The notes under the pieces were generated by a model. That model was not told the origin of the DNA. It ran no database searches and saw nothing but the letters and a program-made list of their open reading frames with translations. Positions 5,285 through 64,000 of a stretch of 64,000 bases of DNA are shown piece after piece. A program made the translations under genes and the position numbers. Position 1 is the first letter of the stretch. Each line of letters begins with the position of its first letter. This DNA comes from Chloroflexota bacterium (GTDB taxonomy: Bacteria; Chloroflexota; Dehalococcoidia; SM23-28-2; HRBIN24): positions 2,162 through 66,161 of the forward strand of contig JAUQPQ010000001.1 in the NCBI GenBank assembly GCA_030550295.1. The letters are read 5' to 3'.

Positions 5285-5347
5285 CCCCTCACCTCCCAGG
5301 TGTTATGCCTCAGCCATGATGCGTGTGTAAAGGGCCGGAGGCCAGCT

Positions 5348-6847: not shown

Positions 6848-6933
6848 CGCTCCTCCTTCACGTTTACGGCCACGTGAAACGATATAAGTTGCCCTTCTTT
6901 AAGGTAGGGCGGCCCAGGTGGATGAGCAATAGA

Positions 6934-39140: not shown

Positions 39141-39629
39141 GTGGGAAAATGTCTTGTAGAGCTGTCCAGGTGGAGCGAGGGGGAGCCGATGGACGACTAC
39201 GGCTTGGATATGGACGAGGCGACCCAGGCCATACAAGAGGCTGAGGTCCTAGTGGTGCGGTTCGCTGCTTTGGACAAGAGGCTGCTAGTAGACTTCCGCA
39301 CTAGCGCCTCGGAAGGCCCCTTTATAGCGGTAGTGCCTAAGGCCTCATCCTTAGAGGAAAGATATAAAAGCCTCAAGCGCCTGCGCCCTCGCTTCCCACT
39401 GCCCGATCGCATCGTCGCCCTGATGTGGCACAGGACTTCTTTGGAGACGTTTCGCCAGTCGGGCCTATGGGACATCATCGTAAGCAGGTTGATAAGCTTG
39501 GGGGGCGAGGAGATGGCGCCCCAGGCAGAGGAGGTCTATCGTCAGCTCCTCCAAGAGGAAAGGCGAGAGATTATAGCCGCCATCCGTGGTGGCGGCTCTT
39601 ATCATACCCTGTGGGAGCGCCCCCGCTGA
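39141..39629 (+). CDS. hypothetical protein
   Basis: A 162-aa ORF with no recognisable motif. The real start may be the internal ATG (MDDYGL). Confidence 0.4.
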   Translation: MGKCLVELSRWSEGEPMDDYGLDMDEATQAIQEAEVLVVRFAALDKRLLVDFRTSASEGPFIAVVPKASSLEERYKSLKRLRPRFPLPDRIVALMWHRTSLETFRQSGLWDIIVSRLISLGGEEMAPQAEEVYRQLLQEERREIIAAIRGGGSYHTLWERPR

Positions 39630-39636
39630 GGGCCCT

Positions 39637-39951
39637 TTAGCTACCCCCTGGCTCAGTGGACAGGACATCAGCGTCGGCGATCTTCCAGTCCCCTCCCATC
39701 TGGCGCCAAATGAAGCGGGCGGTGAAATTAGTAGGCCCCAGATATTTCACCTCACTTACCCAGTCTTGCCCCTCCTGACGCAGAGAGAGCACCTCATAGC
39801 CCTGTATCTGGACGGCCATTCCTGCTCCAGCGGCTGCCTGGAGCTTAACCATGGCCTCAGGGCTGAGGTCGTTCATGAGCTGGCCTATGTCCATGGTGAG
39901 GACCGCCTTGGAAAAGCGGTGGACAGCCCGCTCCACTTCCTCCTGGCTCAT
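39637..39951 (-). CDS. hypothetical small protein
   Basis: A 104-aa ORF convergent with the previous one. No motif assigned. Confidence 0.4.
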   Translation of the reverse strand: MSQEEVERAVHRFSKAVLTMDIGQLMNDLSPEAMVKLQAAAGAGMAVQIQGYEVLSLRQEGQDWVSEVKYLGPTNFTARFIWRQMGGDWKIADADVLSTEPGGS

Positions 39952-40074
39952 GGCCCCTCCTTGTGTACTCTAGGCTACGGAAATGTTACGGCAGGATTGG
40001 GCCAGGGTGAAGATGAGAAAAAGAGTATGCCCCTGCGCCCCACCTTCCATGGTATAATGCAGGGGAGGCGGAGC

Positions 40075-40845
40075 ATGCGCATAGTTCGGGAGCCTCGAGT
40101 TTACCTTGTAGGTCGCCAGCATGTGGACGAAGAGGACATCCAGCGTTTCCTTTCTGACTATGGCCTTACCTGGGAGACGGACACAGAGGTAGGGGCCGAG
40201 AGGTTAGTGGAAGCGGGGGGGCGGGTATGCTATCTATCCTTTGGCAAGGGGCGCAGAAGCAACGCTGAGTACATTGGCAACCTCATATCCCAGCGGCATG
40301 GATCGGTGCTGGAGCATGCCGTTTGGAACTTCATCATCGCTGGCGTCTCGCGCTCCTTCTCCCATGAGCTGGTACGGCATCGGGCAGGGTGGGGGTATTC
40401 CCAGCTCTCTCAGCGCTATGTAGACGAATCTGATGCGGCCTTCGTGGAGCCAGACGTCATCGCTGAAGACGAAAGGGCCCACCAGGTTTGGTTGCGTGCT
40501 GTGGAGACGGCCCAGCGGGCCTATGTAGAGCTAGTAGAGATCCTTTCGGAGAAGTTCAAGGACGTGCCTGATAGGACGCTGCGGCGGAAGTTGGCCAGGC
40601 AGGCTGCCCGTTCTATCTTGCCCAACGCCACTGAGACCATAATTTTCGTCACTGCCAATGCGAGGGCCTTACGGCACTTCATCGAGCTGCGGGGCTCTGA
40701 GTGGGCAGACGCCGAGATAAGAAAAGTGGCCTTGAAGATATTGCGCATCATGCAAAGGGAGGCCCCCCATATCTTCGCCGACTACCGCGTAGAGCGTCTG
40801 CCCGATGGCACGGAGGTAGTGAAGACAGACTACGAGAAAGTTTGA
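40075..40845 (+). CDS. thyX: flavin-dependent thymidylate synthase ThyX
   Basis: The ThyX signature RHRxxxxxS is present in SHELVRHRAGWGYSQLSQRY. A TATAAT sits at about 40053 and a GGAGG RBS lies 7 nt before ATG 40075. Confidence 0.8.
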   Translation: MRIVREPRVYLVGRQHVDEEDIQRFLSDYGLTWETDTEVGAERLVEAGGRVCYLSFGKGRRSNAEYIGNLISQRHGSVLEHAVWNFIIAGVSRSFSHELVRHRAGWGYSQLSQRYVDESDAAFVEPDVIAEDERAHQVWLRAVETAQRAYVELVEILSEKFKDVPDRTLRRKLARQAARSILPNATETIIFVTANARALRHFIELRGSEWADAEIRKVALKILRIMQREAPHIFADYRVERLPDGTEVVKTDYEKV

Positions 40846-43981: not shown

Positions 43982-45089
43982 ATGGAAGAGGCGAAGGAGA
44001 TCCTTTTAGCTATCAGGGAAAGGCTCGACGAGGTCCTAGACCGTCTTTGACATCCCGCGCCTAGAGCAAGAGGCCGAGGCTATAGAGGGAGAGAGCGCCC
44101 TACCCTCCTTTTGGGACGATCCTCAAAGGGCCCAGATGCAGATGAAGCGCCTTGCAGCTATTAGGGAGCAGGTACAAACTTGGCGCAGCCTGGAGGGCGA
44201 GGCTCATGAACTGGCCGAAATATTGGCCTTGGCCGAGGCCGAGGGGGACCAGGAACTAGCCCAAGAGGTGCTTCAGCAGGCCCATGCCCTCAAAGAGCGG
44301 CTAGAGGAGCTGGAATTATCTTTGGCCCTCTCTGGCCCCTACGACCGTAGGGATGCTGTCCTCTCCATCCATGCTGGGGCGGGGGGCACCGATGCCCAGG
44401 ACTGGGCGGAGATGCTCCTACGCATGTACCTGCGTTGGGCCGAGGGGCACGGTTACACCACCCACATCGTCGACATCTTGAGGGGGGAGGAGGCGGGGAT
44501 CAAGAGCGCCACGGTAGAGATCTCAGGTTCCTATGCCTATGGCTACCTGAAGTCTGAAAAGGGGGTGCATCGCCTTGTGCGGCTATCGCCCTTTGATGCC
44601 GCCCATGCCCGCCACACATCCTTCGCCCTCGTTGAGGTGTTGCCCGAGGTGGAGACGCCTACTGAGGTGGAGATACGCCCTGAAGACCTAAAGATAGAGA
44701 CCTTCCGTTCCAGCGGACCAGGTGGCCAGCACATGCAAAAGAACGAGACTGCCATACGCATAACCCATATCCCTACGGGGATCACCGTCTCCTGTCAGAA
44801 CGAACGCTCTCTCCAGCGCAACAAGGAAACGGCCCTCAGGCTTTTGCGGGCCCGGCTCCTGCAGCTGGAAATGGAACGTCAGGAAGAGGAGCGGGCCCGC
44901 CTTAAGGGGGAACACGTCCCTGCCGAGTGGGGCCGCCAGGTGCGCTCCTACGTCCTTCATCCGTATAAGCTGGTGAAAGACCACCGCACCGAGGTAGAAG
45001 TCTCAGACGCCGAATCTGTCCTAGACGGGGAGCTGGACGTCTTCATAAAGTCTTACCTCAAGTCACAACTGGGGCGTAACCAAAGATGA
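43982..45089 (+). CDS. prfB: peptide chain release factor 2, expressed via programmed +1 frameshift
   Basis: Frame 1 reads MEEAKEILLAIRERLDEVLDRL, then CTT TGA C at 44045-44051. The +1 frame continues as DIPRLEQEAEAIEGESALPSFWDDPQRAQMQMKRL... into the body of the gene. The body carries the SPF and GGQ (SSGPGGQHMQKNETA) motifs. Confidence 0.85.
44045..44051 (+). other. prfB autoregulatory +1 ribosomal frameshift site CUU UGA C
   Basis: The canonical heptamer was read directly. An in-frame UGA stops a 22-codon leader. The downstream +1 frame encodes RF2. Confidence 0.8.
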
Positions 45090-46321: not shown

Positions 46322-47057
46322 GGCCGCCTGCCTTTGGCTCTCCCTCCACGGGGGAGGACTCGCCCGAGCTGGTAGGGGTGCGCGTCAGAGTTTGGGATGC
46401 TACCTTTACAATTTGTTCGGCCAGAACTTTGGCCGGTATGGCCCCTGGTATGGCTACGCGCTCGTTAATGACGGTGAGGGGGACAGCGCGCACGTTATAC
46501 CTTTTGGAGAGCTCTGGGAACTGGGATACCTCCACCACTTCTGCGTGGACCTTGGGGTTGACCATAGCTAGACCGTAGGCGGCGCGGGCCATTTGGGGGC
46601 AGTAAGGGCATGTGGGGGTAACGAAGACCCTCACTAGTACATCCTGCTTGAGTTGCCGGATGTGGCGTTGGGCCTCCTCGGGCACAGGGGCCTCCTCTCG
46701 CGAGAGGTGGACGATCGTATCCACCAATTCGGGGAACTCGTAGCCGCCGGGGAAGCCGAAGAACTTGAGGGCTACCCCATCACGGCCTCTCAACACGATG
46801 GCCGGAACCCTGTCCACCCCCATGGACCGTGCCAGTTCGGGCTCCTCTTCTAGCACATGCAGGCGTAGGCTTATCTTGTCGGTCAGGCTGGCCAGCTCTT
46901 GTAATAGTTCCTGCGTGGGACGACAGGTGGGGCAAGGCTCCTTGCCCGGCACGTATATGCCCAACTCCTTCTGAGTGAAGAAGTCTATCTTCACCTGGTG
47001 TACCAGCTCCTGGGCGAACTTCTGGCGGAGGATCTCCTGCTCTTTAAGGGGGATCAT
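46308..47057 (-). CDS. two-domain thioredoxin/glutaredoxin-like protein disulfide oxidoreductase
   Basis: It carries two CXXC motifs (CPTC and CPYC) about 110 aa apart, as in thermophile PDO-type proteins. The start was chosen at the internal ATG with a GGGAGGAAAGG RBS. Confidence 0.65.
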   Translation of the reverse strand: MIPLKEQEILRQKFAQELVHQVKIDFFTQKELGIYVPGKEPCPTCRPTQELLQELASLTDKISLRLHVLEEEPELARSMGVDRVPAIVLRGRDGVALKFFGFPGGYEFPELVDTIVHLSREEAPVPEEAQRHIRQLKQDVLVRVFVTPTCPYCPQMARAAYGLAMVNPKVHAEVVEVSQFPELSKRYNVRAVPLTVINERVAIPGAIPAKVLAEQIVKVASQTLTRTPTSSGESSPVEGEPKAGGLILP

Positions 47058-47647
47058 CGCCTTTCCTCCCTTGCTCCAATACGGATCCACGCCAGAAAGA
47101 GCCTCTGTACTATGGTGAGGCTAGCTAAGATAACCAAGGCCCACAACATTACCTTCACATGATCAATTATAAGGCCTAGACCAAGGAGAAAGACACGTTC
47201 AGGGCGGGCCATGATCCCTTCGGTTAACCTCACTCCCACTATCTCGCTTCGGGCCCGGATGTAGCTAACCATGAATGAGGATACGGCGGCCACGAAGGCC
47301 AGAAGGAGCCCCTCCCTGTCGCCTCCCTGGCTGAAATGGAAGAGGAGGCCACACAAGACGGCCCCTTCTGAGGCCCTGTCCAGAACGGCATCCCAAATGG
47401 AGCCGAAGGGGCTTTGGCGCCCAGTGGCGCGTGCTAAGGCACCATCTAGGAGATCGAAAAGGCTGGCAGCCCACATGAGGATGCCCCCTGCTAGGCCCTC
47501 CCCTCTGGCCACCAGTACTCCTGCCCCTACGTTCCCCATCCCCCCTACCAGGGAGACGATGTTAGGATGGACGTGCCCTCGTAGTAGTAGGGAGATGAGG
47601 GGAGATAAAGCCCTTTCCACCATCTCCCTGGGCACCAGGTAGGACAT
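47054..47647 (-). CDS. CDP-alcohol phosphatidyltransferase (likely phosphatidylinositol-phosphate synthase type)
   Basis: The exact family motif D-x2-DG-x2-AR...G-x3-D-x3-D is present in FDLLDGALARATG...GSIWDAVLDRASE. The hydrophobic profile fits a membrane enzyme. Confidence 0.8.
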   Translation of the reverse strand: MSYLVPREMVERALSPLISLLLRGHVHPNIVSLVGGMGNVGAGVLVARGEGLAGGILMWAASLFDLLDGALARATGRQSPFGSIWDAVLDRASEGAVLCGLLFHFSQGGDREGLLLAFVAAVSSFMVSYIRARSEIVGVRLTEGIMARPERVFLLGLGLIIDHVKVMLWALVILASLTIVQRLFLAWIRIGAREERR

Positions 47648-47650
47648 CCC

Positions 47651-48772
47651 TCACCTGACCTGCATGACCTGACGGTAGTAGGCAAGGACACGTTGGACTA
47701 TGTGGTCCCAGGCATAGCAGGAGGCCGTTCGTAGGCCTTCCTGCCCCATTGACTCCCTTAGGGGAGGATCGGAAAGGAGACGGTACAAGGCCTGGGCCAG
47801 GGCATGGGCATCGCCGGGGGGGACTAGAAAGCCTTGGCGGCCATCTTGCAAAACTTCGGCGAATCCTGGGATGCGGGAGGCCACGATGGGCAAACCTGAG
47901 GCCATCGCCTCTAACAAGACGATCCCTTGGCTCTCCGCCCCCGTATTAGGGGCGCAGAAGATATGGGCGCTGCGGTAATAGCGGGGAACCTCCTCATCGG
48001 GCACGCGACCTGTGAAGATGACGTCTTTAAGCCCTGTACGCTCAACGAAGCGCTGGCAGGGCCCCATCATGCCTCCGTCCCCTCCCACTACTATGAGGCG
48101 CAATTGGGGAAGTTCTTTCTTGAGGATGGAGTAGGCCTGCAGTAGATACGGCAGCCCTTTTCGTCTTTCCAAACGGCCCAAAAACAGGAGGTTTGCTTTG
48201 CCATCGTCTAGGCCAGGCAGGGGCAGAACCCCAGGCCCGAACCTCTCCACGTCTACACCGTTAGGGATGATGCGGTATCGTCCGGCAAAGTACTTGCCTA
48301 TGAGGCGGAGGGCGGTCCTGGAGACGGCGATCCGTCCCCATATGCGGGGCCAGTAAGGGCTGAGCAAGTTACGGGCATAAGCGTATAGACGGCTTCCCCC
48401 CTCGCGGGCGGCGTGGAAGGTGGCTACGATGGGGCCATCATAGAACCGCAGGAACTGGAGAGGCAAAAAGGGCATAAATGGCTCATGGAGATGGACCAGA
48501 TCCCACTTCTCCTGGGCCAGGAGGCGTCGGACTTGCCCAGCCAGGACGAAAGATAGGCAAATGCGGGCCACAGAGCCGCTGGCTGGGAGCCCTACCGTGT
48601 ATTTGCCCACCACCCGCAGATAAGGCAGGCGATGGGATCCAGGCCGCGATGAAGGTGCTATCACGGTAACTTGGTGCCCTTGGGCAATAAATCGGGTGGC
48701 GAGGTGATGTATGTGGTTGTTCACCCCCCCAGGGACTGCCCAATCGTATGGGGAGACGAGGGCTATTTTCAT
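47651..48772 (-). CDS. GT4 family glycosyltransferase (PimA-like mannosyltransferase)
   Basis: The 373-aa protein has the GT-B fold and the EX7E-region GT4 motifs (GRLERRKG, ESQGIVLLEAMASGLPIV). Confidence 0.75.
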   Translation of the reverse strand: MKIALVSPYDWAVPGGVNNHIHHLATRFIAQGHQVTVIAPSSRPGSHRLPYLRVVGKYTVGLPASGSVARICLSFVLAGQVRRLLAQEKWDLVHLHEPFMPFLPLQFLRFYDGPIVATFHAAREGGSRLYAYARNLLSPYWPRIWGRIAVSRTALRLIGKYFAGRYRIIPNGVDVERFGPGVLPLPGLDDGKANLLFLGRLERRKGLPYLLQAYSILKKELPQLRLIVVGGDGGMMGPCQRFVERTGLKDVIFTGRVPDEEVPRYYRSAHIFCAPNTGAESQGIVLLEAMASGLPIVASRIPGFAEVLQDGRQGFLVPPGDAHALAQALYRLLSDPPLRESMGQEGLRTASCYAWDHIVQRVLAYYRQVMQVR

Positions 48773-49515
48773 GGCCTCTTCCTAGGCAATAGCCTCAGCA
48801 CGAAACTTTTGGCGGTAGGGCCTAGGCCTACTGCTCGGGGGGTAGCGGTAAGGCCCCGCCAAGCCTGCCTAACCACCTGTCCCAGCCCCAGTTCCCAGGG
48901 GGACGGATGGCGACCGTTGATGCCTTGGGTCTGCCGGGCCATGATAGCCTTGCGCAACTCCTGGGCTGTGGTGCCTGGGAAAAGGGTGTAGGCGGTACCT
49001 ATGGCCTTGAGGAAGTGGGCATCGGATCCTCCCACCTCTGCCAGATGGAAAAGATTCTGGTTTAGCTCTCTGGCGCGGGCCTGGCCAGGCCTGGCCCCAG
49101 GGGACGCGTTAGCTGTCTCCAGGGCGTGCAGGTAGGGAAGGAGGCGTTCAATGTCCCTCTTGCCCAAGCTGCGGGTGAGCCAGCTCATGGGATGTGGCAC
49201 GACCACTATTCCTCCTTGGCGGTGCACTGCCTCTATTACCTCATGGGCAGGGCGCAGGCTGGGCAGCGGCTCCTTAATGAAGAGAGCCAGCAGGTGCCCC
49301 TCAATGGCGGTCACCTCCATGCCCATCACCACTTGGAAGCGATAGCGGCCCTTGGCCCACTCCTCAAGGACGGCGTATGCCCCTGCCAGGCTATCGTGGT
49401 CGGTGATGGCGATGACGTCTAGGTCTGTTTCCTCCTCGACATAACGAAGGATCTGGGCTGGGGTGGCCATGCCATCGCTGAAGGAGGTATGTATGTGAAG
49501 GTCAGCCTTGCCCAT
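48769..49515 (-). CDS. PHP-domain phosphoesterase
   Basis: PHP metal-binding motifs are present: ADLHIHTSFSDG, ITDHD, VVPHP, GGSDAHF. Confidence 0.75.
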   Translation of the reverse strand: MGKADLHIHTSFSDGMATPAQILRYVEEETDLDVIAITDHDSLAGAYAVLEEWAKGRYRFQVVMGMEVTAIEGHLLALFIKEPLPSLRPAHEVIEAVHRQGGIVVVPHPMSWLTRSLGKRDIERLLPYLHALETANASPGARPGQARARELNQNLFHLAEVGGSDAHFLKAIGTAYTLFPGTTAQELRKAIMARQTQGINGRHPSPWELGLGQVVRQAWRGLTATPRAVGLGPTAKSFVLRLLPRKRP

Positions 49516-50398
49516 AGTTATCTTTGCGTTCCTCAGTATCCCATATAGCTTCCAGTACTATCCACTGGCCAGGATCGCGCCGCACATAGGTCTCTAGTAT
49601 TTGCAAGAAACGTAGGGTGTTGGCAAGGACGTCCTCTTCCAGGGAGCCTCCCCTTGTAATCTCCATAGGCGGGTGGACAAAGACCTCTAGGCCGTGGCCA
49701 CGGCGGAAGGAGAAGACGGGTAGGACTATGGCACCCGTGCGTAGGGCCACCTCTATGGGGCCTATAGGCATGCTAGCTTCTGTGCCCAAGAAAGGGAGGC
49801 GTGCCCTAGGCCCCTGGATGTCCCTATCGCCCATGAGGGCTACCACCCCGCCCTGACGGAGAGTTTTTATCGCGGCCCTGACGCCTGCCACGCTCACGGG
49901 CAGGAAGGTGTGCCCCTTACGGGAACGAAGGCGGTCTACCAACTGGGAGAGCTGGGGAGGGTGGAGGGGTTCGGTAAGGGCTACCACCTTAATCCCATGG
50001 GCTAACAGCCCTTGTACTGCCAGCTCTGGGTTGCCCAGGTGGCCACTAAGAAGGATAACGCCTTTGCCTTGGGACAGGGCAGGCAGGAAGTGCTCGTAGA
50101 ACCCATGATGGGTGAGGTGCTGGCAGTAGAAAGAGTAAACGTCTAGGTAAGGCATGTGCACCAAGTCGGCATAATAGCGGGCCACATTGCGGAATACAGC
50201 CCTAGCTGTTCGTTGAAGTTGTATGGGCGAGGCTTGAGGCCCCAGCACGTGGTGCAGGTTATCTAACACCTTTCGGCGTAGTCCAGGCCGCAGCCAGTAG
50301 GCTATTTCCCCCGCTACGTCACAGAGGGGATAGAGGAGCCACACGGGTAGGCGCCCTAGGGTCAGGGAGGCCACCCAGATCAAAAGGTAACGCCACAT
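49502..50398 (-). CDS. lysophospholipid acyltransferase (LpxL/HtrB-like; PIM-acyltransferase-like)
   Basis: The 298-aa protein has an N-terminal TM and a lauroyl/myristoyl acyltransferase family pattern with HLGNPE. Confidence 0.7.
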   Translation of the reverse strand: MWRYLLIWVASLTLGRLPVWLLYPLCDVAGEIAYWLRPGLRRKVLDNLHHVLGPQASPIQLQRTARAVFRNVARYYADLVHMPYLDVYSFYCQHLTHHGFYEHFLPALSQGKGVILLSGHLGNPELAVQGLLAHGIKVVALTEPLHPPQLSQLVDRLRSRKGHTFLPVSVAGVRAAIKTLRQGGVVALMGDRDIQGPRARLPFLGTEASMPIGPIEVALRTGAIVLPVFSFRRGHGLEVFVHPPMEITRGGSLEEDVLANTLRFLQILETYVRRDPGQWIVLEAIWDTEERKDNYGQG

Positions 50399-50418
50399 CT
50401 ACCGGGGCCGCCTCGGCC

Positions 50419-51498
50419 CTACATTTGGCCGTTACCGGCGATGAACTCTTCTGTCAGCCTGCGTGCCTCGGCGTCGGTAAACTGCTTAGGCGGCGACTTC
50501 ATGAAGTAGGCGCTGGGCCCTATGAGGGGCCCAGGGACGCCTCGGTCCAGGGCCAGCTTGGCACACCTGATGGCATCTATCACCACGCCGGCCGAGTTGG
50601 GGCTATCCCACACCTCCAGCTTGCACTCCAAATTGATGGGCACTCCTCCGAAGGCTGTCCCCTCCATGCGGATGTAGCAGAACTTTCTGTCCAGCAGCCA
50701 GGGCACATAGTCGGAGGGGCCGATGTGCACATTGCCCTCGGGCAGCTCATAGCCCAGCTGGGAAGTGACGGCTGAAGTCTTGGAGATCTTCTTAGAAAGA
50801 AGGCGCTCCCTTTCAAGCATGTTGAGGAAGTCAGTGTTGCCGCCGAAGTTGAGCTGGTAAGTACGCTCTACCCTTACCCCCCTCTCTACAAAGAGGCGGG
50901 TGAGGACTCGGTGCAAAATGGTGGCCCCCACCTGCGACTTGATGTCGTCACCGATGATGGGTAGGCCACGCTCCTCAAACCGCTTCTGCCAGTAAGGTTC
51001 CCGGGCGATGAAGACGGGTATGCAGTTGACAAAGGCACATCCGGCCTGGAGCACCTGCTCCACGTACCACTTGGTGGCCTCCTCCGAGCCTACCGGTAGG
51101 AAGTTGACAACTACGTGAGTCTGCGTCTCCTTAAGGATGCGCACGATATCTGCGGTGGGCCCCGGCGCCTTGGCGATCACCTCCCGCAGGTATTTGCCCA
51201 GCCCATCATGGGTCATCCCCCGTTCCACTTTCACCCCTAAAGGGGGGACATCACAGAACTTGTAGGTGTTGTTAGGGGGCGTAAATATGGCCTCGGCCAA
51301 GTCCTTGCCCACCTTGTTGGCGTCGACGTCAAAGGCTGCTACGAACTCGATGTCACCTACGTGGTAGTCTCCTATTTTGACGTGCATGAGGCCGGGGATC
51401 TCCTCTTTTTCGTCGGTGTGCCGGTAGTAGTAGACACCTTGGACGAGGGCTGAGGCGCAATTCCCTATGCCGATGATGGCCACGTTTATCTTGCCCAT
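50419..51498 (-). CDS. ino1: myo-inositol-1-phosphate synthase (inositol-3-phosphate synthase)
   Basis: The 359-aa protein shows the bacterial/archaeal MIPS pattern ([19 protein letters not shown]-binding, [10 protein letters not shown]). Confidence 0.8.
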
Positions 51499-55344: not shown

Positions 55345-57231
55345 ATGCGTTTCTTGCCTCCTCCTCGGCGTTCATGGGACCGTTTCCCTAGGAGGCGGTT
55401 GGCACCACCCCCAGCTCAGGGCGCAGGCTCTCCCCCTGTAGAATCGCGCCGCCCCTTATCTGCGCCACGGGATCCTGGGCCTTATATCCTCGGTGGGGCC
55501 CTTCTGGTGGTGGTGTTAGTGGCCCTGGTGGTCAGTTTCACCTGCCTTGGCGGCGGAGAGGAGCAGGAGGCGATGGTGGGGCCGGGCATCAGTGTGCGGG
55601 CTCAAGAACCTCCCCCCTTGCCCAAGGGTTTTACCTTGGCCAGCAACTGGCTTGTCTTTCGGGTGAAGGAGGAACCTATCTCCCCTGTGCGCTTGGGCCT
55701 GCCCCTGCGCTCGGGCTTTGGACAGGCGCGGGATCTGGCCTTCTACACCTATCAGAATGGAAGGTGGCAACGCCTCAAGGAGGCGATAGTAGTATCTACT
55801 GAGGCCTTCCAGAGGGGGGAATGCCGGCCTTCTCAGGGTGTAGGTCAGGGCCCTCTCCTGGCCTGTGGCGAGTTCTTGCCTGTACCCCCAAACTTGGCGG
55901 TGCTGGCCGGCCGTCCCCCTCAGCAGGCGAAGGTGATCGCCTCCCTTCCTTCGATGGCTTCTCTGCATCCGGAGGCCCAAGAGCTAGCGTGGATGGTCAG
56001 CCCCCGTGACTTCCAGCCCTCTGACGATGGGGGTGTCAAGGGTAGGCTTACGTCGTTACGCCTTAGGCCAGGCCAGGAGCTGATCCCTACCATATGGGCA
56101 GGTGAATACGAGGCTGCAACCCTTAGGGCCATCTTGTCCGATGAGCGACTACGCGCCGCGCACATAGAGAAGATCCTCTCCCTGGTGAAATCGGAGGGCC
56201 TCAAGGGCGTCAATATTGAGTACGACGTTCCTCCTGAGGTGGCCGTTTCCTTCCAGGTCTTCGTGCGGGAGTTGGCCCAGGGCCTTCACCGGACGGAGGC
56301 CAAGCTGGCCGTTACCCTTCCACCCCCTGTCCCCTCTCCCACCGTGGACTGGGCAGCTGTGGGCGAGGCAGCCGATATGGTCTGGATGCTGCCGGTACTT
56401 GATCCCCAGTCGTACCGGGTAGTTATGCCTAGGGCCCTAGAATATGCTACAGCCCGGGTCCCTCCCGAGAAGCTCTATCTGGTGCTAAACCCCTTTAGCG
56501 TCCGTCGTCATCGTGGTGGCCTTGAATTGATAGGCTACGAAGAGGCCATGTCCCTCGCCTTGGAGGTAGATGTAACGTCGTCTGGGCCTCTGCGGCCTGG
56601 GAGCTCGGCCCAGCTGCGGGCGGTAAACCTCGTAAGTGGTGGTCTGGCCTGGAGTGACGATGTGGCTGCTGTCACCTTTACCATAGGCACGGGTGGCGAA
56701 GAGGTGATCTTTGTTGAGAACTTCTTTAGCGCCGGCTTTAAGCTGGAGATGGTGACGGCCTTTGGTCTGGCAGGGGTTGTGATAGCCGATGCCTCTGAGG
56801 AGTCGGATCTGGCCCCCATCTGGCCCCAAGTCCGGGAGATGGTAGAGACGGGCTCGCCGGTCCTGCAGCGGCCCAATGGGGGTGCCCTGACGCCTCGCTG
56901 GCAGGCCTCGGGCGGGCGGCTCAGCCGTGAGCAGGGAGCCTCCACCTCTTGGACAGCTCCAGGCGAGGGCACCTTCCAGGTAGAGCTGGTAGTGAGCGAC
57001 GGCCAAAACCGGTTCGGGCGGCGTGTCATTCTCACTGTGGGCGCGGCCCTTCCTCCCTCTCCTAGTCCCCAGCCCAGCCCAACGGTGATGCCCACTCCTA
57101 CCCCCTCACCTACTCCAATGCCAACGCCTACGCCGAGCCCCGCTCCTTCTACACCTACGCCTAGGCCTACTCCCACACCTACGCCCAGCCCTACTCCCAC
57201 GCCTACGCCCAGGCCAAGTCCTACCCCGTGA
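55345..57231 (+). CDS. membrane-anchored protein with possible GH18-like (chitinase-like TIM barrel, degenerate catalytic motif) domain and C-terminal Pro/Thr-rich tail
   Basis: It has an N-terminal cytoplasmic segment and a [10 protein letters not shown] sits where GH18 has DGxDxDWE. The last about 65 aa are PTPTPSP repeats. Confidence 0.4.
57040..57228 (+). repeat. coding low-complexity tandem repeat (PT/PS-rich linker, cca/acg/cct/agc codon periodicity)
   Basis: Read directly from the sequence: ...cctactcctaccccctcacctactccaatgccaacgcctacgccgagccccgctcct.... Confidence 0.7.
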
Positions 57232-59119: not shown

Positions 59120-59148
59120 TTGTCAAGGCCCCCAAAAAGGGCTATAAT
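59120..59148 (+). promoter_or_regulatory. consensus sigma70 promoter TTGTCA-N17-TATAAT upstream of first GH130-like gene
   Basis: TTGTCA is at 59120-59125, followed by a 17-nt spacer and TATAAT at 59143-59148. An AAAGGAGGG RBS and ATG 59186 lie downstream. Confidence 0.6.
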
Positions 59149-59185
59149 TTGTAAAGGCGGAGGTGTGGGCGAAAGGAGGGTAGGA

Positions 59186-60304
59186 ATGGCAAGGCGCACC
59201 TTAACAGCTTGGCGCGGCACCAGTTCTCCCCCGGAGATCGTTAGGGCCCCTGAAAACCCCATCATCGCACCTAGGCCCGACAACCCGTGGGAATGGCACG
59301 CCACTTTCAACCCTGCTGCCCTTCACTTTGAGGGCTGTGTACACCTGCTTTACAGGGCCATAGGGGCTGGCAACGTCTCCGTGATCGGATATGCTAGCTC
59401 TGAAGACGGGATTCATATCGATGAGCGGGCAGATGATCCGGTCTACGTGCCCACTCAGCCCTTTGAGATAACTCCTCCTCAGGCTAGGGAATCTAGGCAA
59501 GAAAGGCTCTATCGGCGGGCCTACATCTCTGGCGGCGGTTGGGGAGGGGCGGAGGACCCACGTCTCACCCAGATAGAAGACCGTATCTACATGACCTATG
59601 TCGCCTATAACGGCTTTGATCCTCCCAGGGTAGCCTTCACGTCCATAAGCACCGAAGACTTCTTGGCCAGGCGATGGAACTGGACTCCCTCGCGGGTCAT
59701 CTCACCACCTGGGGTGGTAGACAAGAACGCCTGTCTGCTTCCTGAGAAGATAGGGGGCAAGTTCGTCATCTTCCATCGAATCTTCCCGGACATCCTCATC
59801 GACTTTTTGGACACGCTGGACTTTAAAGAGGGCGAATACCTGGCGGGCAAGTACTCCATCCATCCGCGCCCTGGGTACTGGGACAGTCGCAAGGTAGGGG
59901 CTGGCCCACCCCCCCTGAAGACGAGGCGAGGATGGCTTCTCATCTACCACGGGGTAGACGACAAGGACGACACCTACTACCAAGTGGGAGTAATGCTTCT
60001 GGGCCTGGATGACCCCACCAAGGTCATAAGCCGGCCTCGGTACCCCATCATGAAGCCCCAGTTCAGGTATGAGAACGAGGGCCATAAGGCCGGCGTGGTC
60101 TACCCATGTGGGGCTGTCATCCTTGGAGAGCGGCTATTGATCTACTACGGGGGAGCAGATAAATTTGTGTGCGTGGCCCATGTGGGCTTAGAGGATATAT
60201 TGGACTATCTTGAAGAATACCGGATCTCTAAGGTTATAGGGCCACGGCAGCGTAGTGAAGGCGGAACGTCTGCCAGGGAACCCGATCTTAAAGCCGATCC
60301 CTGA
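59186..60304 (+). CDS. GH130-family (beta-mannoside phosphorylase/glycosidase-like 5-bladed beta-propeller) protein
   Basis: GH130-type motifs are present: ENPIIAPRPDNPWEWHATFNPAA, EDPRLTQIEDRIYMTYVAYNG, LLIYHGVDD, GERLLIYYGGADKFVCVA. The start was chosen at the ATG after an RBS, not at the longer ORF-track start. Confidence 0.7.
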   Translation: MARRTLTAWRGTSSPPEIVRAPENPIIAPRPDNPWEWHATFNPAALHFEGCVHLLYRAIGAGNVSVIGYASSEDGIHIDERADDPVYVPTQPFEITPPQARESRQERLYRRAYISGGGWGGAEDPRLTQIEDRIYMTYVAYNGFDPPRVAFTSISTEDFLARRWNWTPSRVISPPGVVDKNACLLPEKIGGKFVIFHRIFPDILIDFLDTLDFKEGEYLAGKYSIHPRPGYWDSRKVGAGPPPLKTRRGWLLIYHGVDDKDDTYYQVGVMLLGLDDPTKVISRPRYPIMKPQFRYENEGHKAGVVYPCGAVILGERLLIYYGGADKFVCVAHVGLEDILDYLEEYRISKVIGPRQRSEGGTSAREPDLKADP

Positions 60305-62201
60305 CCACGGGTGGGAGTCCCTAGCCACCTTTAACGGCTGCGTCGTAAAGGTGGGGGGACTCTACCGTATGCTATATCGTGCCATGTCATATCCCCGCAC
60401 ACATCTGGGGGCCTATCTGCCCGTTTCCTTCATAGGATATGCCGAAAGCGAGGACGGGCTGCATTTCTCGGGGCGGCGCCTCTTCTTTGGCCCCGAGCAG
60501 GAATGGGAGGCCTTCGGCTGTGAGGACCCCAGGGTAACCTTTTTGGATGGGAAGTACTACGTCTTCTACACGGCCCTCTCCGCCTTCCCCTTCCGTCCCC
60601 AGGGCATACGCGTGGGCCTGGCTATCTCCCGCGACCTGCTGACGGTCGACGAGAAGCACTTGGTCACCCCCTTTAACGCTAAGGCTATGGCCCTATTCCC
60701 CCAGCGCATTGGTGGCAAGCTGGTGGCAGTCCTTACTGTTAACACCGATCTGCCTCCGGCCAAGATATGCCTGGCCTTCTTCGACAGGGAGGAGGAGCTG
60801 TGGGACCTGGACCGTTGGCAGGCATGGTATGAGTCTTTAGACACTCACGTCTTGCCCCTCATGAGGTCGTCTGTAGACCAGGTGGAGGTTGGCGCCCCAC
60901 CCGTGCTGGTGGAGGGAGGGTGGCTTCTAATATATAGCTACATCAAGGGATATCTCAGGGGCGACCGCACCTTCGGCATAGAGGCAGTGCTGCTAGACCA
61001 GGAAGACCCCTTCCGGGTGCGTGGTCGCACGACCGAGCCCATCCTAGTGCCTGAGGCCTATTACGAGAGGATAGGTCATGTGATGGACGTAGTTTTCCCC
61101 TCGGGTGCGGTAGTAAATGGGGACGAGCTGCTAATTTACTACGGCGCTGCCGATACTACGGTGGCAGTAGCCAAGGTCTCATTGCCTAAGCTGTTGGCCG
61201 AGATGCGGCCGCCCTCCTTCCTAGTGCCCTCACCTACCCGTGGAGACTGGCCCTCACTTGTACGTTACGAGGGCAACCCTATCTTATCGCCGCGGCCTGA
61301 GCTGGGGTGGGAGGCTAAGTCGGTCTTCAACCCTGGAGTGGTGGTAGCTGGGGGACGGGTCCACATGCTCTACAGGGCCCTATCCCACGACAACACATCG
61401 GTAATAGGGTATGCCTCCAGCAGTGACGGCATCTATTTCGATGACCAGCCCACGGTGCCCGCCTACCGGCCACGTGCGAGCTTCGAACAAAAGGCGTCCC
61501 CTGATGTCCCCTCAGGCTGTGAGGATCCTCGCCTTACACTCCTCGATGGGCGGGTTTACATGCTTTACACCGCTTTCGATGGCTACCAAGCCCGCGTAGC
61601 CGCCACTTCTATCCCCCTGGACGACTTTTTGGCGAAGCGGTGGGATCGCTGGGAGTGGCCTATCGTTATCTCTGCCCCTGAGGTTTGGGACAAGAACGCT
61701 GCCCTACTGCCTCGCAGGATCAAGGGGAAGCTGGTGGTATTCCACAGGCTAAGCCTAGGGATTTGGGTGGACTGGCTAGACAGCTTAGAGGAAGCGCAAG
61801 AGCATTGGCTTGGGGGGAAGGTGATCTTAACTCCCCGAAAGGGTATGTGGGACAACCGTAAGGTGGGCATCGCTGCTCCACCGATAGAGACGGAATATGG
61901 GTGGCTAATACTTTATCACGGTATCGAGGAACCAGGGACCATCTACCGGGTAGGGGCGGCCCTCTTGGACTTGGACGACCCCACGCGCGTGCTGGCCCGT
62001 AGCCGAAGGCCCTTGCTGGAGCCAGAGATGGAATGGGAGCGGCATGGGCTTGTTCCCAACGTTGTATTTCCCTGCGGAATTGCGGTCTTGGGCGATGACC
62101 TATACGTCTATTACGGTGGCGCTGACCATGTAATAGGGGTGGCTGGCGTAAAGCTTAAAGCCCTAGTCGAGGCCCTTCTACGCGAGGGACGAGAAGGATG
62201 A
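60255..62201 (+). CDS. tandem double GH130-like domain protein
   Basis: The 648-aa protein has two complete repeats of the same fold (GNPILKPIPDHGWE...YYGAADTTVAVA and GNPILSPRPELGWEAK...YYGGADHVIGVA). The start is a GTG that overlaps the previous gene's 3' end by about 50 nt in another frame. Confidence 0.65.
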   Translation: MKAERLPGNPILKPIPDHGWESLATFNGCVVKVGGLYRMLYRAMSYPRTHLGAYLPVSFIGYAESEDGLHFSGRRLFFGPEQEWEAFGCEDPRVTFLDGKYYVFYTALSAFPFRPQGIRVGLAISRDLLTVDEKHLVTPFNAKAMALFPQRIGGKLVAVLTVNTDLPPAKICLAFFDREEELWDLDRWQAWYESLDTHVLPLMRSSVDQVEVGAPPVLVEGGWLLIYSYIKGYLRGDRTFGIEAVLLDQEDPFRVRGRTTEPILVPEAYYERIGHVMDVVFPSGAVVNGDELLIYYGAADTTVAVAKVSLPKLLAEMRPPSFLVPSPTRGDWPSLVRYEGNPILSPRPELGWEAKSVFNPGVVVAGGRVHMLYRALSHDNTSVIGYASSSDGIYFDDQPTVPAYRPRASFEQKASPDVPSGCEDPRLTLLDGRVYMLYTAFDGYQARVAATSIPLDDFLAKRWDRWEWPIVISAPEVWDKNAALLPRRIKGKLVVFHRLSLGIWVDWLDSLEEAQEHWLGGKVILTPRKGMWDNRKVGIAAPPIETEYGWLILYHGIEEPGTIYRVGAALLDLDDPTRVLARSRRPLLEPEMEWERHGLVPNVVFPCGIAVLGDDLYVYYGGADHVIGVAGVKLKALVEALLREGREG

Positions 62202-62354: not shown

Positions 62355-63221
62355 TCAGCTGCTCCGGAAAATAGCCAGCTTCGCCTCGCTGTCCGAGGCC
62401 TCCACCGCCACGATGACAACGACTACTCGGCCTTCTTCCGTTCGCTGGAACACCATGAAGGAGGAGAAGCTGGGCACCTCTTCTTCTACAGTGAATGGGC
62501 TTGACCACTGCTGCTGCGGCATGCGGTCGCGGTAGAACTGTGCTACTTGGCGAGCGCTCTGCCTGACACGATAAGTCTTGATCTCCCACTGGGCAAAGGT
62601 TCCCGTGGGTAAGGGCACCGGCACGGGCGGTGGGCCTGGAATGCGGACAGAACTCTCTAAGGTAGCGCCGGACGGCAGAGGCACCCCCAAGAAGGCATCG
62701 CCAGAGTCGGCAGGAGCGGCCTGTGGCGTCGGTGTCGCTCCTGGAGCTGGAGACGGGGAGGGCGTCCTACCCACTGTGGGCGTTGGCGACCCAACTGCCG
62801 ATACCTGCTCGGACACCTTTGTCACTTGCCACGTGCCCTTATAGTTCGGGTTGACGGCCACCTGCCAATCGCCACTCATCCGGTTGCCGTCTTTGAGGGA
62901 GCCTCTGTAGGTGATGCTGCCGGCGGCGGCTGTGCCCTGGAGCTTGAGGGTGCTTCCACTCAGTTCGCCATTTGCAGCGAATGAGCCGCCGCAGCCTCCA
63001 TCTACGCGGGCATCAAAGCGCGCCCCTTCCTGGCGGAAGATCTCCATCACCAGCCGGTCGGAGGTACAACCGGGTGCACCAGTAGTGCCCTCCCAGCGGC
63101 CCTCCCAGCGGCCAATTAGAGAGGCTGGGCCTTGGGAAGGCGCCCTTTCACCGCCGCATGCCATGGCAGCCAGCGCTATTAGTGCCACTGTTAGCAGTAA
63201 GCAATGGGCCACTGGCCTCAT
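62355..63221 (-). CDS. hypothetical lipoprotein with Pro/Thr/Ser-rich linker
   Basis: A signal peptide with an LAAMAC lipobox is present. The central linker is TPTVGRTPSPSPAPGATPTPQ. No catalytic motif was found. Confidence 0.5.
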   Translation of the reverse strand: MRPVAHCLLLTVALIALAAMACGGERAPSQGPASLIGRWEGRWEGTTGAPGCTSDRLVMEIFRQEGARFDARVDGGCGGSFAANGELSGSTLKLQGTAAAGSITYRGSLKDGNRMSGDWQVAVNPNYKGTWQVTKVSEQVSAVGSPTPTVGRTPSPSPAPGATPTPQAAPADSGDAFLGVPLPSGATLESSVRIPGPPPVPVPLPTGTFAQWEIKTYRVRQSARQVAQFYRDRMPQQQWSSPFTVEEEVPSFSSFMVFQRTEEGRVVVVIVAVEASDSEAKLAIFRSS

Positions 63222-63414
63222 GCTGGCTTCCCTTTGGAGGGCGGCTAGCGTTGTCCTCTCCAACGCCTTGATAAGGGCCTTTCACTTGGTTGTCAAGGGG
63301 GAATATTCGCAATAGCACGAAGCCTACGCCACTATGCCCATCATGCGGCGTCAAGGCGAGGCTCACCGGAGAGACTTGACGTCACCTGCTTTGCCCATCT
63401 GCCAGGTCAGGGTT

Positions 63415-64000
63415 TCAATCCTCGATGTAATCCTGAAAGGCCCGAGGCGCCTCCACGCCATCGCGCTTTTTAACCTTAATTAGCTCGAAGAGGCTGTGCG
63501 CATGGGCATCGCCGTAGGGGCTCTGGTGAGTGAATATATAAATGCCCCGGACGGACATCTCGCCTCGCAGGGCTGAGCGATCTAGCTCGAACATGTTTTC
63601 CAGGGCATCCCAAAAAAGCCTCAGGTCTTCTTTGCGCACACCGGTCTGCTTGGCCAATGTGGGATTGAAGAAGCCGTGAGCGCGTTAGAGGCCGTAAGGA
63701 ATGTTAGGCTTGCGCCCTATCTCCGTCTCCCCCCTCTCTTGTCTCTCCTCAGTCGTCCGCGCTTTGCGGATGATAGTCCAGGCTATGGGGAAAACAGGAT
63801 CGATGCTGCGAGCGAACACTAGCTGCACGGGCCCTCTCACCTGGCCAGCGTTTATTTTGCCGGTGGACAGCACGCCACCAAACAAACGGATATCGTAATA
63901 TTTTCGGCACAACGCTTGGGGCACGTCGTCATGGGGGCGCCGACTCAGTTCCCGTTTTTCGGCATCAGACAGCTGATCGTAGCCCGTGAGCTTTTTGCCA
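63415..64000 (-). pseudogene. cas7: CRISPR-associated Cas7 (Csd2/DevR-type) gene fragment interrupted by in-frame TAA; N-terminus beyond window
   Basis: The frame continuous from the window edge reads ...GKKLTGYDQLSDAEKRELSRRPHDDVPQALCRKYYDIRLFGGVLSTGKINAGQVRGPVQLVFARSIDPV...NIPYGL, then TAA at 63685-63687. The same frame then continues ...AKQTGVRKEDLRLFWDALENMFELDRSALRGEMSVRGIYIFTHQSPYGDAHAHSLFELIKVKK. I call it Cas7 because of its resemblance to type I-C/I-B Cas7, judged from memory. Confidence 0.45.

Follow-up and report, generated by a model that had tools for sequence, protein, structure and literature searches.

What would a bacterium do with three copies of the GH130 propeller kept side by side, one in a gene of its own and two fused in the next, and are two genes that overlap out of frame really two genes? 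This question is raised by positions 59120-62201 of the window (the whole 64,000-nucleotide stretch of Chloroflexota DNA analysed here). The explanation we favour, and as a whole consider likely, is a two-gene operon with a promoter of its own that would supply a cytoplasmic set of modules, M1 from gene 1 and the fused M2-M3 from gene 2. M1 and M3 would be phosphorylases, M2 would act independently of phosphate, and the genes would be separate cistrons whose overlap goes back to an indel.

Gene 1 (59186-60304, plus strand) encodes 372 aa with the single module M1, and gene 2 (60255-62201, plus strand, GTG start) encodes 648 aa with two fused modules, M2 (60255-61229, plus strand; aa 1-325) and M3 (61230-62201, plus strand; aa 326-648). 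The original prediction gave about 373 and 648 aa; the second length is borne out, while the first is 372 aa, counted from the ATG at 59186. Although the first open frame begins with the TTG at 59120, translation should start from this ATG, and independent gene callers return 372 aa too. The strong ribosome-binding site that had been claimed can be read from the sequence as a Shine-Dalgarno AAGGAGG (59173-59179, plus strand) 6 nt upstream of the ATG, and GGAGG-type sites precede gene 1 in the relatives L008 and L009 as well. The sigma-70-type promoter proposed for the array, TTGTCA-N17-TATAAT (59120-59148, plus strand), is present and plausible as the array's own, but since it matches 11 of the 12 consensus positions it is not the perfect promoter that had been stated. 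It is the sole match of at least 11/12 on both strands of the 64-kb window (∼0.17 expected by chance) and sits in a 240-nt gap downstream of a coiled-coil gene; we take it as a putative promoter. No good Shine-Dalgarno sequence was found upstream of the gene 2 GTG at 60255, and the gene 1 stop lies 47 nt downstream of that GTG. Both points weaken the case for ordinary initiation of gene 2 there, which is presumed. Translation of the two genes may be coupled. A search downstream of gene 2 found no intrinsic terminator, and the next gene is convergent. In a crude Kyte-Doolittle check both proteins begin with hydrophilic residues and show no hydrophobic stretch there, and we predict that both are cytoplasmic and lack a signal peptide.

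The assignment to GH130, with three full modules in a one-plus-two arrangement, holds. Profile PF04041 (Glyco_hydro_130; gathering score 26) matches gene 1 once (170.7 bits, profile positions 4-320, E 4.8e-50) and gene 2 twice (361 bits over two stretches, E 5.1e-108). The motifs NPI(I/L)xP and EDPR are found in all three modules, YYGGAD in M1 and M3, and its variant YYGAAD in M2. The fold is confirmed by an AlphaFold2 model of gene 2 (pLDDT 94.5) together with Foldseek, and the pTM of 0.90 indicates that the two propellers pack against each other in a defined way. Purifying selection acts on each of the three modules (dN/dS 0.08-0.13; ∼0.1 for M1 and ∼0.12 for M2), and the 4 SNP positions seen in the population are all synonymous. 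Scored singly against the beta-1,2-mannobiose phosphorylase model NF052550, M1, M2 and M3 reach 227, 190 and 280 bits; no single module attains the equivalog cut-off of 450 bits, set for a whole protein, and the 465 bits of complete gene 2 do not count, because they add two modules together. As the cut-off is missed, the precise substrate may be a different one. Against NF058598, the GH130_3 model of BT3780 type, the scores are 86-119 bits (cut-off 550), and no signal peptide is predicted. The array is a variant of a known family.

Residues were read by the logic of Li et al. 2020 (PMC7660257, Table 2), Cuskin et al. 2015 (PMC4599007) and Ladeveze et al. 2025 (PMC12814180). A phosphorylase has a proton-donor Asp (UhgbMP D104), no catalytic base, and a set of basic phosphate ligands: Arg (UhgbMP R168, equal to Uhgb_MS R202), His (H231, equal to H261) and Arg/Lys (Uhgb_MS R242). 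Beta-1,2 specificity is marked by a Glu beside the catalytic Asp and a Lys at the position of UhgbMP R150 (PMC7660257, PMC4599007), a pair that serves as a sequence predictor. The proton donor, the Asp of EDPR, is present as D124 in M1, D91 in M2 and D424 in M3, and the Glu/Lys pair as E123/K (in DKNA), E90/K143 and E423/K480; all are invariant in homologues. The phosphate-binding residues, singled out in the original prediction as those that discriminate phosphorylases from hydrolases, are complete in M1 and M3, and all three basic ones are missing from M2.

In M1, whose best solved relatives are 9fj8 and 7fip, alignment to these structures places the Asp124 codon at 59555-59557 (plus strand; invariant in 67/67 M1 orthologues), and next to E123/D124 and the Lys of DKNA the full phosphate triad is found as H197-R198, K236 and H255. 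M3 is the module nearest 7fip/9fj8, with the top NF052550 score. Its signature consists of R374, E423, D424 (codon 61524-61526, plus strand; invariant in 111/111 homologues), K480, the phosphate ligands H497-R498, K536 and H555, and D624, all invariant or nearly so. From these patterns M1 and M3 are predicted to be beta-1,2-mannoside phosphorylases.

The middle propeller is different. In M2 the residues of the sugar site and of catalysis are retained: R42, E90, D91 (codon 60525-60527, plus strand; invariant in 111/111 homologues), K143 and D300. By three independent alignments, HMMER (with 9fj8, 7fip and Uhgb_MS), MAFFT and hhalign profile-profile, all three basic phosphate ligands are absent from it, and they are absent in 111 of 111 homologues as well. 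Where the HR motif would be, M2 has T161..(N/H/D)163-T164-D165, and either T161 or T164 takes the place of the phosphate Arg, according to which alignment is used. The R/K that precedes VG is deleted or replaced, the region reading D208-(H/Q)-(V/I)-E211, and YHG becomes Y-S228-Y, so that His is exchanged for Ser228. This replacement pattern is itself invariant or nearly so in the 111 homologues. Carboxylates D165, D208 and E211 lie near the lost basic residues, which is suggestive of a hydrolase-type pattern; they are at most candidates for a hydrolytic base, and E211/D165 may or may not correspond to Glu227/Glu268 of BT3780. The best 5 PDB alignments of M2 are all to phosphorylases. We predict that M2 is non-phosphorolytic, either a hydrolase or a transferase.

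The layout of one module plus a fused two is common in uncultured bacteria. M1 lies directly upstream of M2-M3 in 75 of 82 informative related loci; the two are split in 74 of these 75 and fused in one, and M2-M3 is fused in 88/88 loci. Spacing between the split genes runs from about -20 to +88 nt except in three outliers (+377 to +1032 nt), and every frame offset (0, 1 or 2) is represented. Beyond the single fused locus, a few database proteins are fused triples, collinear as M1-M2-M3, and these count as Rosetta-stone evidence for a joint function of the modules. Homologues of gene 2 number 5744 at E<=1e-10, mostly 635-665 aa long; in the ∼1060-aa M2-M3 proteins a 420-aa C-terminal extension gave no Pfam or PDB sequence match. 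The array is also widespread in Chloroflexota and CPR bacteria. A scan of genome contigs with gene 2 gave only four distant loci, and EF-G places the organism roughly, at 72% identity to 'bacterium HR25' and 66-68% to Chloroflexi/Dehalococcoidia MAGs.

At the junction, the genes overlap by exactly 50 nt (60255-60304, plus strand), with gene 2 in the +1 frame relative to gene 1 and its frame open from 60240, after a TAG at 60237-60239 and 15 nt upstream of the GTG, much as had been described. The overlap is the longest among the 74 split loci. In the closest relatives the gene 1 stop overlaps the gene 2 start (TAGTG or GTGA, offset -1), and in relatives at 74-76% identity it overlaps the conserved GTG. 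The junction GCGT(A/C)GTGA(A/G)GG is common to the window, L008 and L009, and the DNA alignment shows the GTG and the codons after it to be conserved as a start. The TAGTGA that supplies the gene 1 stop codons in the closest relatives is present in the window (60253-60258, plus strand), overlapping the gene 2 GTG, but is out of frame for gene 1. A MAFFT DNA alignment reveals 2 extra nt in the gene 1 3′ tail compared with L008 and L009, placed approximately at 60238-60242 (plus strand; exact position uncertain within about 60215-60250) and equivalent in frame terms to a 1-nt deletion. Because this indel moved the ancestral TAG/TGA stop at the GTG out of frame, gene 1 extends 50 nt further. The tail is unconserved, and the window frame reading ...GYRATAA and two stops matches the relatives' tails ...SIASAA (two stops) and ...LSTAS (one stop). 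On these alignments the overlap reflects a harmless, lineage-specific small tail indel and not a frameshifting device.

The original prediction had allowed for an ancestral triple-domain polypeptide or a junction read by frameshifting; the related loci support neither. Programmed +1 frameshifting, for instance at CCC_UGA_C (60299-60305), would yield a single M1-M2-M3 polypeptide, and several observations would fit: gene 2 lies in the +1 frame, gene 1 ends in CCC TGA C, fused triples occur in other bacteria, and the organism carries a canonical prfB frameshift site, CTT TGA C, at 44045. A Pro codon followed by a stop is a +1-prone context in other systems. However, orthologues are essentially always two genes with canonical starts (74 of the 75 loci with M1 upstream are split), the outcome that the original prediction had itself named as refuting; since spacing varies and all three frame offsets occur, there is no conserved shift site, and the constant frame relation that would also mark a programmed event is not seen among them. 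The closest relatives have overlapping stop and start at offset -1, and the indel accounts for the overlap while the GTG and following codons are conserved as a start. Moreover, a shift at the stop would replace the first 16 residues of M2, among them N9 and P10, which lie in the N-terminal strand and are invariant. We rejected the CCC_TGA_C site on the split relatives, the indel origin and the conserved GTG start, and regard frameshifting as extremely improbable. A sequencing or assembly error hiding a canonical TAGTG junction deserves no more credit. The difference from relatives amounts to only 2 nt beside a G/C run (AGGGCC), but six independent assemblies, built from different runs and drawn from Logan and ENA, agree at every position of a 181-nt stretch across the junction, and strain variants among them, with synonymous SNPs elsewhere in gene 2, have the same junction.

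The role of M2 leaves more room for alternatives. M2 could be a catalytically dead pseudo-enzyme, an obligatory dimer partner or carbohydrate-binding lobe for M3, making gene 2 a covalent GH130 homodimer. GH130 phosphorylases are dimers or higher oligomers in which partner loops shape the active site (PMC12814180), M2 and M3 are always fused with a confidently modelled packing, and the nucleophile-binding site of M2 is lost. We think this unlikely, as D91 and the -1/+1 residues R42, E90, K143 and D300 are invariant in homologues only ∼50% identical overall, and the replacements T164, D165, D208, E211 and S228 are conserved almost as strictly. This suggests an active site that has been remodelled rather than one that has decayed. 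Standalone M2-type proteins also exist (P0133). Another possibility is an anabolic or cyclic role, in which M2 is a GDP-mannose-dependent transferase and primer of an intracellular beta-1,2-mannan reserve, comparable to Leishmania mannogen, that M1 and M3 extend and degrade. M2 has no Arg at the position of Uhgb_MS R202, the site of the GT108 His/Arg switch between GT-only and GT/phosphorylase enzymes, and weak GDP-Man transferase activity was found in all tested beta-1,2 GH130 phosphorylases (PMC12814180). Reduced-genome, non-saccharolytic lineages (CPR, Dehalococcoidia) commonly carry the array and have no transporter beside it, and small cytidylyltransferase-like and HAD genes come after it in some loci. 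Yet beta-1,2-mannan has not been reported from these bacteria, M2 also lacks the equivalents of R242 and H261 that in Uhgb_MS help to bind the GDP-Man diphosphate, the gained carboxylates are typical of GH130 hydrolases, and the most frequent neighbour of the array is catabolic. This leaves an anabolic role quite improbable, more so than a dead M2.

The genomic neighbourhood gives few hints. No mannose-metabolism gene or sugar transporter adjoins the pair in the window. The original prediction pointed to a cluster for mannosylated inositol lipids, and at 47054-51498 (minus strand) genes for a CDP-alcohol phosphatidyltransferase, a GT4, an HtrB-like acyltransferase and an inositol-1-phosphate synthase are indeed found. 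We rejected a link with this PI/PIM-like cluster because it lies on the opposite strand, 8 kb off, with EF-G, a response regulator, rsmD, coaD and other genes in between, and also because it concerns alpha-mannosides. The mannose of PIM-type lipids is alpha-mannose, on which inverting beta-mannoside phosphorylases do not act. Across related loci, clustering of 588 flanking ORFs returned weak recurrent partners only, with neither transporters nor glycosyltransferases conserved. A mannose-6-phosphate isomerase cupin is the commonest partner, adjoining the array in 12 loci; a cytidylyltransferase-like gene recurs in 7 loci, a HAD gene in 3, and a PGM/PMM adjoins the array in L017.

Under the two-cistron explanation preferred here, the operon would be expressed from its own promoter and give three cytoplasmic five-bladed propellers in the fixed order M1, then M2-M3. 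[quoted passage not shown] M2 may bind and distort a beta-mannoside, since its proton-donor Asp and -1/+1 subsite residues are intact, and would work without phosphate, since it should be unable to bind it; hydrolysis of beta-mannosides seems its most likely activity, with nucleotide-sugar transfer as the alternative. M2 and M3 would be held as a fixed pseudo-dimer, and the products may enter mannose-phosphate metabolism (Man1P to Man6P to Fru6P, or GDP-Man). Frameshifting would not be required, and the overlap would have arisen in this lineage by a 2-nt insertion or equivalent indel in the gene 1 tail. What the analysis shows directly is which modules these are, their residue patterns, how far the architecture is conserved and where the junction comes from, whereas enzymatic activities, substrate, use of the promoter and coupling of translation are inferred.

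More than 99% of GH130 members are monomodular (Li et al. 2020, PMC7660257), and against this nearly monomodular view stands a very large clade of environmental sequences in which the three-propeller layout is fixed. It offers CAZy biochemists a target, a predicted cytoplasmic fusion of non-phosphorolytic and phosphorolytic modules, and possibly a clue to mannose handling in reduced-genome bacteria such as CPR and Dehalococcoidia-like Chloroflexota. It should also serve as a warning to annotators that a long out-of-frame overlap of homologous genes can be a trivial tail indel and not a frameshift or pseudogene. A bolder thought, which we hold to be rather unlikely, is that the array is a self-contained machine for an intracellular pool of beta-1,2-mannan or beta-mannosides with mannogen-like cycling, and M2 a previously unrecognised GH130 clade switched to GDP-Man-dependent transfer or to cytoplasmic hydrolysis independent of GH130_3.

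Tandem GH130 architecture has a precedent in CAZy, where four GH130-GH130 bimodular sequences were listed in 2018, without further description, with both modules in one SSN meta-node (PMC7660257); an N-terminal module without phosphate site and a conserved upstream M1 gene are not described for them in that paper. The GT108 enzymes MTP1-7 of Leishmania mannogen metabolism (PDB 6q4y, 6q50) share the five-bladed propeller (Foldseek E ∼1e-9, TM 0.66-0.69) and beta-1,2-mannan chemistry, and their paralogues, which differ at a phosphate-binding Arg/His switch, split transfer from phosphorolysis. At 14-16% identity, however, this is a distant fold match and the window modules are probably not GT108 members, and GT108 enzymes are eukaryotic, separate paralogous proteins and not a fused array. 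M2 resembles the GH130_3 beta-1,2-mannosidases BT3780 and BACOVA_03624 (PDB 5a7v, 3qc2; PMC4599007) in keeping the Asp, the Glu/Lys +1 determinants and the -1 subsite; they too lack the three basic phosphate ligands and have carboxylates lining the nucleophile side. But these are secreted single-module enzymes of Bacteroides PULs, whereas M2 is fused and predicted to be cytoplasmic. M2 is also much nearer the GH130_6-type phosphorylases (190 bits to NF052550 versus 86 to the BT3780 model), so its loss of the phosphate site looks independent. The closest system overall is Teth514_1788, a 1,2-beta-oligomannan phosphorylase, and Teth514_1789, a beta-1,2-mannobiose phosphorylase, of Thermoanaerobacter sp. 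X-514 (PMC4264767; subfamily GH130_6; PDB 9fj8/9gph, 7fip). Compared with it, the window has three modules instead of two, two of them fused and the middle one without a phosphate site, lacks the surrounding cluster of ABC transporter, GH5 and Man1P guanylyltransferase, and has identities too low for the NCBIfam equivalog cut-off. Nevertheless, for each of the three modules these proteins rank first in both sequence and structure (E 1e-44 to 1e-68, 38-40% identity, TM 0.88-0.90), they are likewise encoded by adjacent GH130 genes without signal peptides, and they share with M1 and M3 the proton donor, the Glu/Lys beta-1,2 determinants and the phosphate ligands.

All three modules encoded at 59120–62201 belong to family GH130, as originally predicted: the Pfam domain PF04041 (Glyco_hydro_130) matches the gene 1 product once (E 4.8e-50) and the gene 2 product twice (E 5.1e-108). 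We took M1 as gene 1, M2 as residues 1–325 of gene 2 and M3 as residues 326–648; M1 and M3 are 48% identical, M1 and M2 37%, M2 and M3 38%. The solved structures nearest to all three are 9fj8/9gph, a Thermoanaerobacter beta-1,2-oligomannan phosphorylase, and 7fip, a beta-1,2-mannobiose phosphorylase. For gene 2, AlphaFold2 gives a confident model (pLDDT 94.5, pTM 0.90), and in a Foldseek search with it the same structures match single propellers (TM 0.88–0.90, identity 38–40%), while no solved chain spans both (top query-normalised TM 0.42). None of the modules reaches the 450-bit cut-off of the NCBIfam beta-1,2-mannobiose phosphorylase equivalog (M1 227, M2 190, M3 280 bits); the whole gene 2 protein scores 465 bits on it, with its two modules summed.

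The region contains two ORFs, both on one strand. The gene 1 frame first opens at TTG 59120 (+), a triplet that is part of the -35 hexamer of a promoter-like site, and the gene starts at ATG 59186 (+), 6 nt 3′ of an AAGGAGG (59173–59179, +). This gives a product of 372 aa, in agreement with independent gene calls in six metagenome assemblies, rather than the ∼373 aa first proposed; gene 2 (GTG 60255 to 62201, +) does encode the expected 648 aa. As anticipated, the two genes overlap in different frames, by exactly 50 nt (60255–60304, +), gene 2 being read in frame +1 with respect to gene 1, and the gene 2 frame is open ahead of its GTG, from 60240 on. The promoter-like site, TTGTCA-N17-TATAAT (59120–59148, +), is present but not perfect, agreeing with the consensus at 11 of 12 positions. 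Since both strands of the 64-kb window offer no other match as good (a first-order Markov model gives ∼0.17), and since the genes upstream are housekeeping ones (rsmD, coaD and a coiled-coil protein), it is plausible that the GH130 pair has its own promoter.

An assembly artefact at the junction of the two genes is unlikely, because a 181-nt segment across it is the same in six independent assemblies, three of which depart from the window at four gene 2 sites, every time synonymously. In the nearest relatives, three loci with proteins 74–76% identical (L008, L009 and L018), the gene 1 stop sits right at the gene 2 start; the junction is TAGTG with a 1-nt overlap in L009 and GTGA with a 4-nt overlap in L008, and in both gene 2 is in -1 offset to gene 1. 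The GCGTAGTGAAGG of the relatives' junction is still present in the window. In the DNA alignment, however, the window has 2 extra nt at ∼60239–60241, just 5′ of GCGTAGTGAAGG in the unconserved gene 1 tail; the TAG at 60253–60255 is therefore out of frame and gene 1 continues to TGA 60302–60304. Read in the frame of the old stop, the window gives ...GYRATAA followed by two stops, which resembles the relatives' tails ...SIASAA (two stops) and ...LSTAS (one stop).

The original prediction had also considered a triple-domain ancestor or a junction read by frameshifting. With an alignment of 31 double (M2-M3) proteins, 80 metagenome loci were collected, and their modules were typed with HMMs made for M1, M2 and M3. 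An M1-type module lies directly 5′ of M2-M3 in 75 of the 82 loci with sufficient upstream sequence; the two are separate ORFs in 74 of these 75 and a single ORF in one (L010), whereas M2 is fused to M3 at every one of 88 loci. Measured from where gene 1 stops to where the M2 profile begins to match, the spacing falls for the most part between -20 and +32 nt; each of the three frame offsets occurs, and the window's -53 nt is the extreme. Fused triples are few (proteins P0004–P0007, 971–1110 aa, collinear in the order M1-M2-M3). The split 1+2 layout is thus the rule, three-module fusion is rare and a conserved frameshift site is absent, which speaks against both proposals. A +1 slip in the window itself is conceivable at CCC TGA C (60299–60305), the end of gene 1; in other systems a stop right after a proline codon is a shift-prone context. 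Yet such a slip would swap out the first 16 residues of M2, including the invariant N9 and P10, and the motif is without counterpart in the relatives, so its use is unlikely. By contrast, the window holds a textbook programmed +1 site, CTT TGA C at 44045–44051, in the release factor 2 gene prfB (44000–45089, +; PCRF and RF-1 domains), a known phenomenon that served as a positive control, illustrating a genuine frameshift site; its short first frame closes with ...LDEVLDRL and a stop, and the +1 frame goes on FDIPRLEQEAE....

The key residues of GH130 enzymes are the proton donor D104, the +1 subsite R59, Y/E103, R/K150 and D304 (Glu plus Lys indicating beta-1,2 linkages), and the phosphate ligands R168 and H231, all in UhgbMP numbering, to which R242 of Uhgb_MS adds a third basic residue; the GT108 His/Arg switch is R202 of Uhgb_MS, which equals R168 of UhgbMP (PMC7660257, with Table 2; PMC4599007; PMC12814180). 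M1 and M3 have the full set of proton-donor, +1-subsite and phosphate residues, and neither gene product has a hydrophobic N-terminus; judged by sequence, both modules are predicted cytoplasmic beta-1,2-mannoside phosphorylases. M2 retains R42, E90, D91, K143 and D300, each invariant in 111 homologues, and has a basic residue at none of the three phosphate positions, on which three alignment methods agree. Relative to the phosphorylase motifs, HR has become T..(N/H/D)-T-D, the R/K ahead of VG is deleted, leaving D208-(H/Q)-(V/I)-E211, and YHG has become Y-S-Y. The residues found instead are in turn invariant or almost invariant, and dN/dS against three relatives is 0.08–0.13 for each module. 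The M2 active site is accordingly best described by its residues as a putative remodelled one, predicted to be independent of phosphate.

Most simply, M2 would be a hydrolase, because carboxylates in place of basic residues are the GH130_3 pattern. Alternatively it could be a transferase, since loss of the Arg switch residue is the pattern of GT108. M2 scores 190 bits on the phosphorylase model and 86 bits on that of the GH130_3 mannosidase BT3780, so that its loss of the phosphate site looks independent of GH130_3. Some phosphate ligands are also missing in ∼45% of M1 orthologues from other lineages (L010, L034–L097), with Arg to Ser, Lys to Val/Ile/Leu and sometimes His to Gln changes; in these organisms only M3 has a complete phosphorylase site, whereas the window's M1 keeps all three ligands.

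Homologues of gene 2 number 5744 at E<=1e-10; almost all are ∼640–650 aa long, and Candidatus Levybacteria and Dehalococcoidales are among the named carriers. EF-G of the window is 72% identical to that of 'bacterium HR25' and 66–68% to those of Chloroflexi/Dehalococcoidia MAGs, which puts the organism close to uncultured Chloroflexota. Searching 1.84 billion cluster representatives with M2 only gave 130 clusters at E<=1e-30, which include a few standalone M2-type proteins (such as P0133, 329 aa, with the xTD and YSY signature) and one circularly permuted M3-M2 double (P0135, 645 aa). Seven loci (L015, at 5176–6981, L020, L037, L046, L075, L094 and L096) have a very divergent fourth GH130-like module, M0, fused N-terminally to M1 (34–62 bits on the module HMMs); this M0-M1 / M2-M3 layout amounts to two double proteins in tandem, one case being in a Candidatus Levybacteria MAG. 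Five proteins of ∼1060 aa (P0028, P0035, P0093, P0106 and P0113) carry after M2-M3 a conserved C-terminal extension of ∼420 aa, for which Pfam gave no match and PDB sequences none better than E 0.09.

Genes flanking the array are mostly unrelated between loci. Only three neighbours recur: a small mannose-6-phosphate isomerase cupin in 12 loci, as a rule directly 3′, a cytidylyltransferase-like protein in 7 and a HAD hydrolase in 3. PGM/PMM is found near the array in one locus; these neighbours hint weakly at a link to mannose-phosphate metabolism. None of them adjoins the pair in the window. Nor is the suggested connection with the inositol-lipid cluster evident. That cluster (47054–51498, -) encodes a CDP-alcohol phosphatidyltransferase, a GT4 glycosyltransferase, a PHP-domain protein, an HtrB-like acyltransferase and myo-inositol-1-phosphate synthase, and is of the phosphatidylinositol(-mannoside) type, unusual outside Actinobacteria. 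Downstream of the GH130 genes, at 62355–64000 (-) and in L001–L006, the type I-C cas genes Cas7, Csd1/Cas8c and Cas5d lie in short pieces (Cas7 called as 74+79+116 aa, Csd1 as 131+188 aa), whose borders vary among assemblies of the same population (a Csd1 fragment of 188 versus 327/333 aa); this suggests that the CRISPR-Cas locus is decaying or frameshift-polymorphic. The gene at 55345–57231 (+) encodes a 628-aa protein with a membrane anchor at its N-terminus, a weak GH18-like match (E 5e-5, under the Pfam cut-off) and, at its C-terminus, a long tail rich in Pro, Thr and Ser (PTPTPSPTP repeats). In the 419-aa ORF at 39586–40845 (+) the ThyX (Thy1) domain covers residues 203–395 only; either there is an N-terminal extension of ∼200 aa or the true start is downstream of the GTG.

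We did not find the conserved M1 / M2-M3 order, or a middle module without a phosphate site, described in the open-access literature. While the genetic side of the pair is ordinary, it represents a GH130 architecture variant that is widespread and uncharacterised and includes a predicted non-phosphorolytic module, of moderate weight for carbohydrate enzymology. Four GH130-GH130 bimodular sequences were present in CAZy in 2018, both modules falling into a single network node, without characterisation (PMC7660257), and a CPR genome paper noted only five glycoside hydrolases, two of them intracellular GH130 proteins (PMC7143001). The characterised system closest to genes 1 and 2 is the adjacent pair Teth514_1788/1789, for which a role in salvage of beta-1,2-oligomannan to Man1P and GDP-Man has been proposed (PMC4264767).
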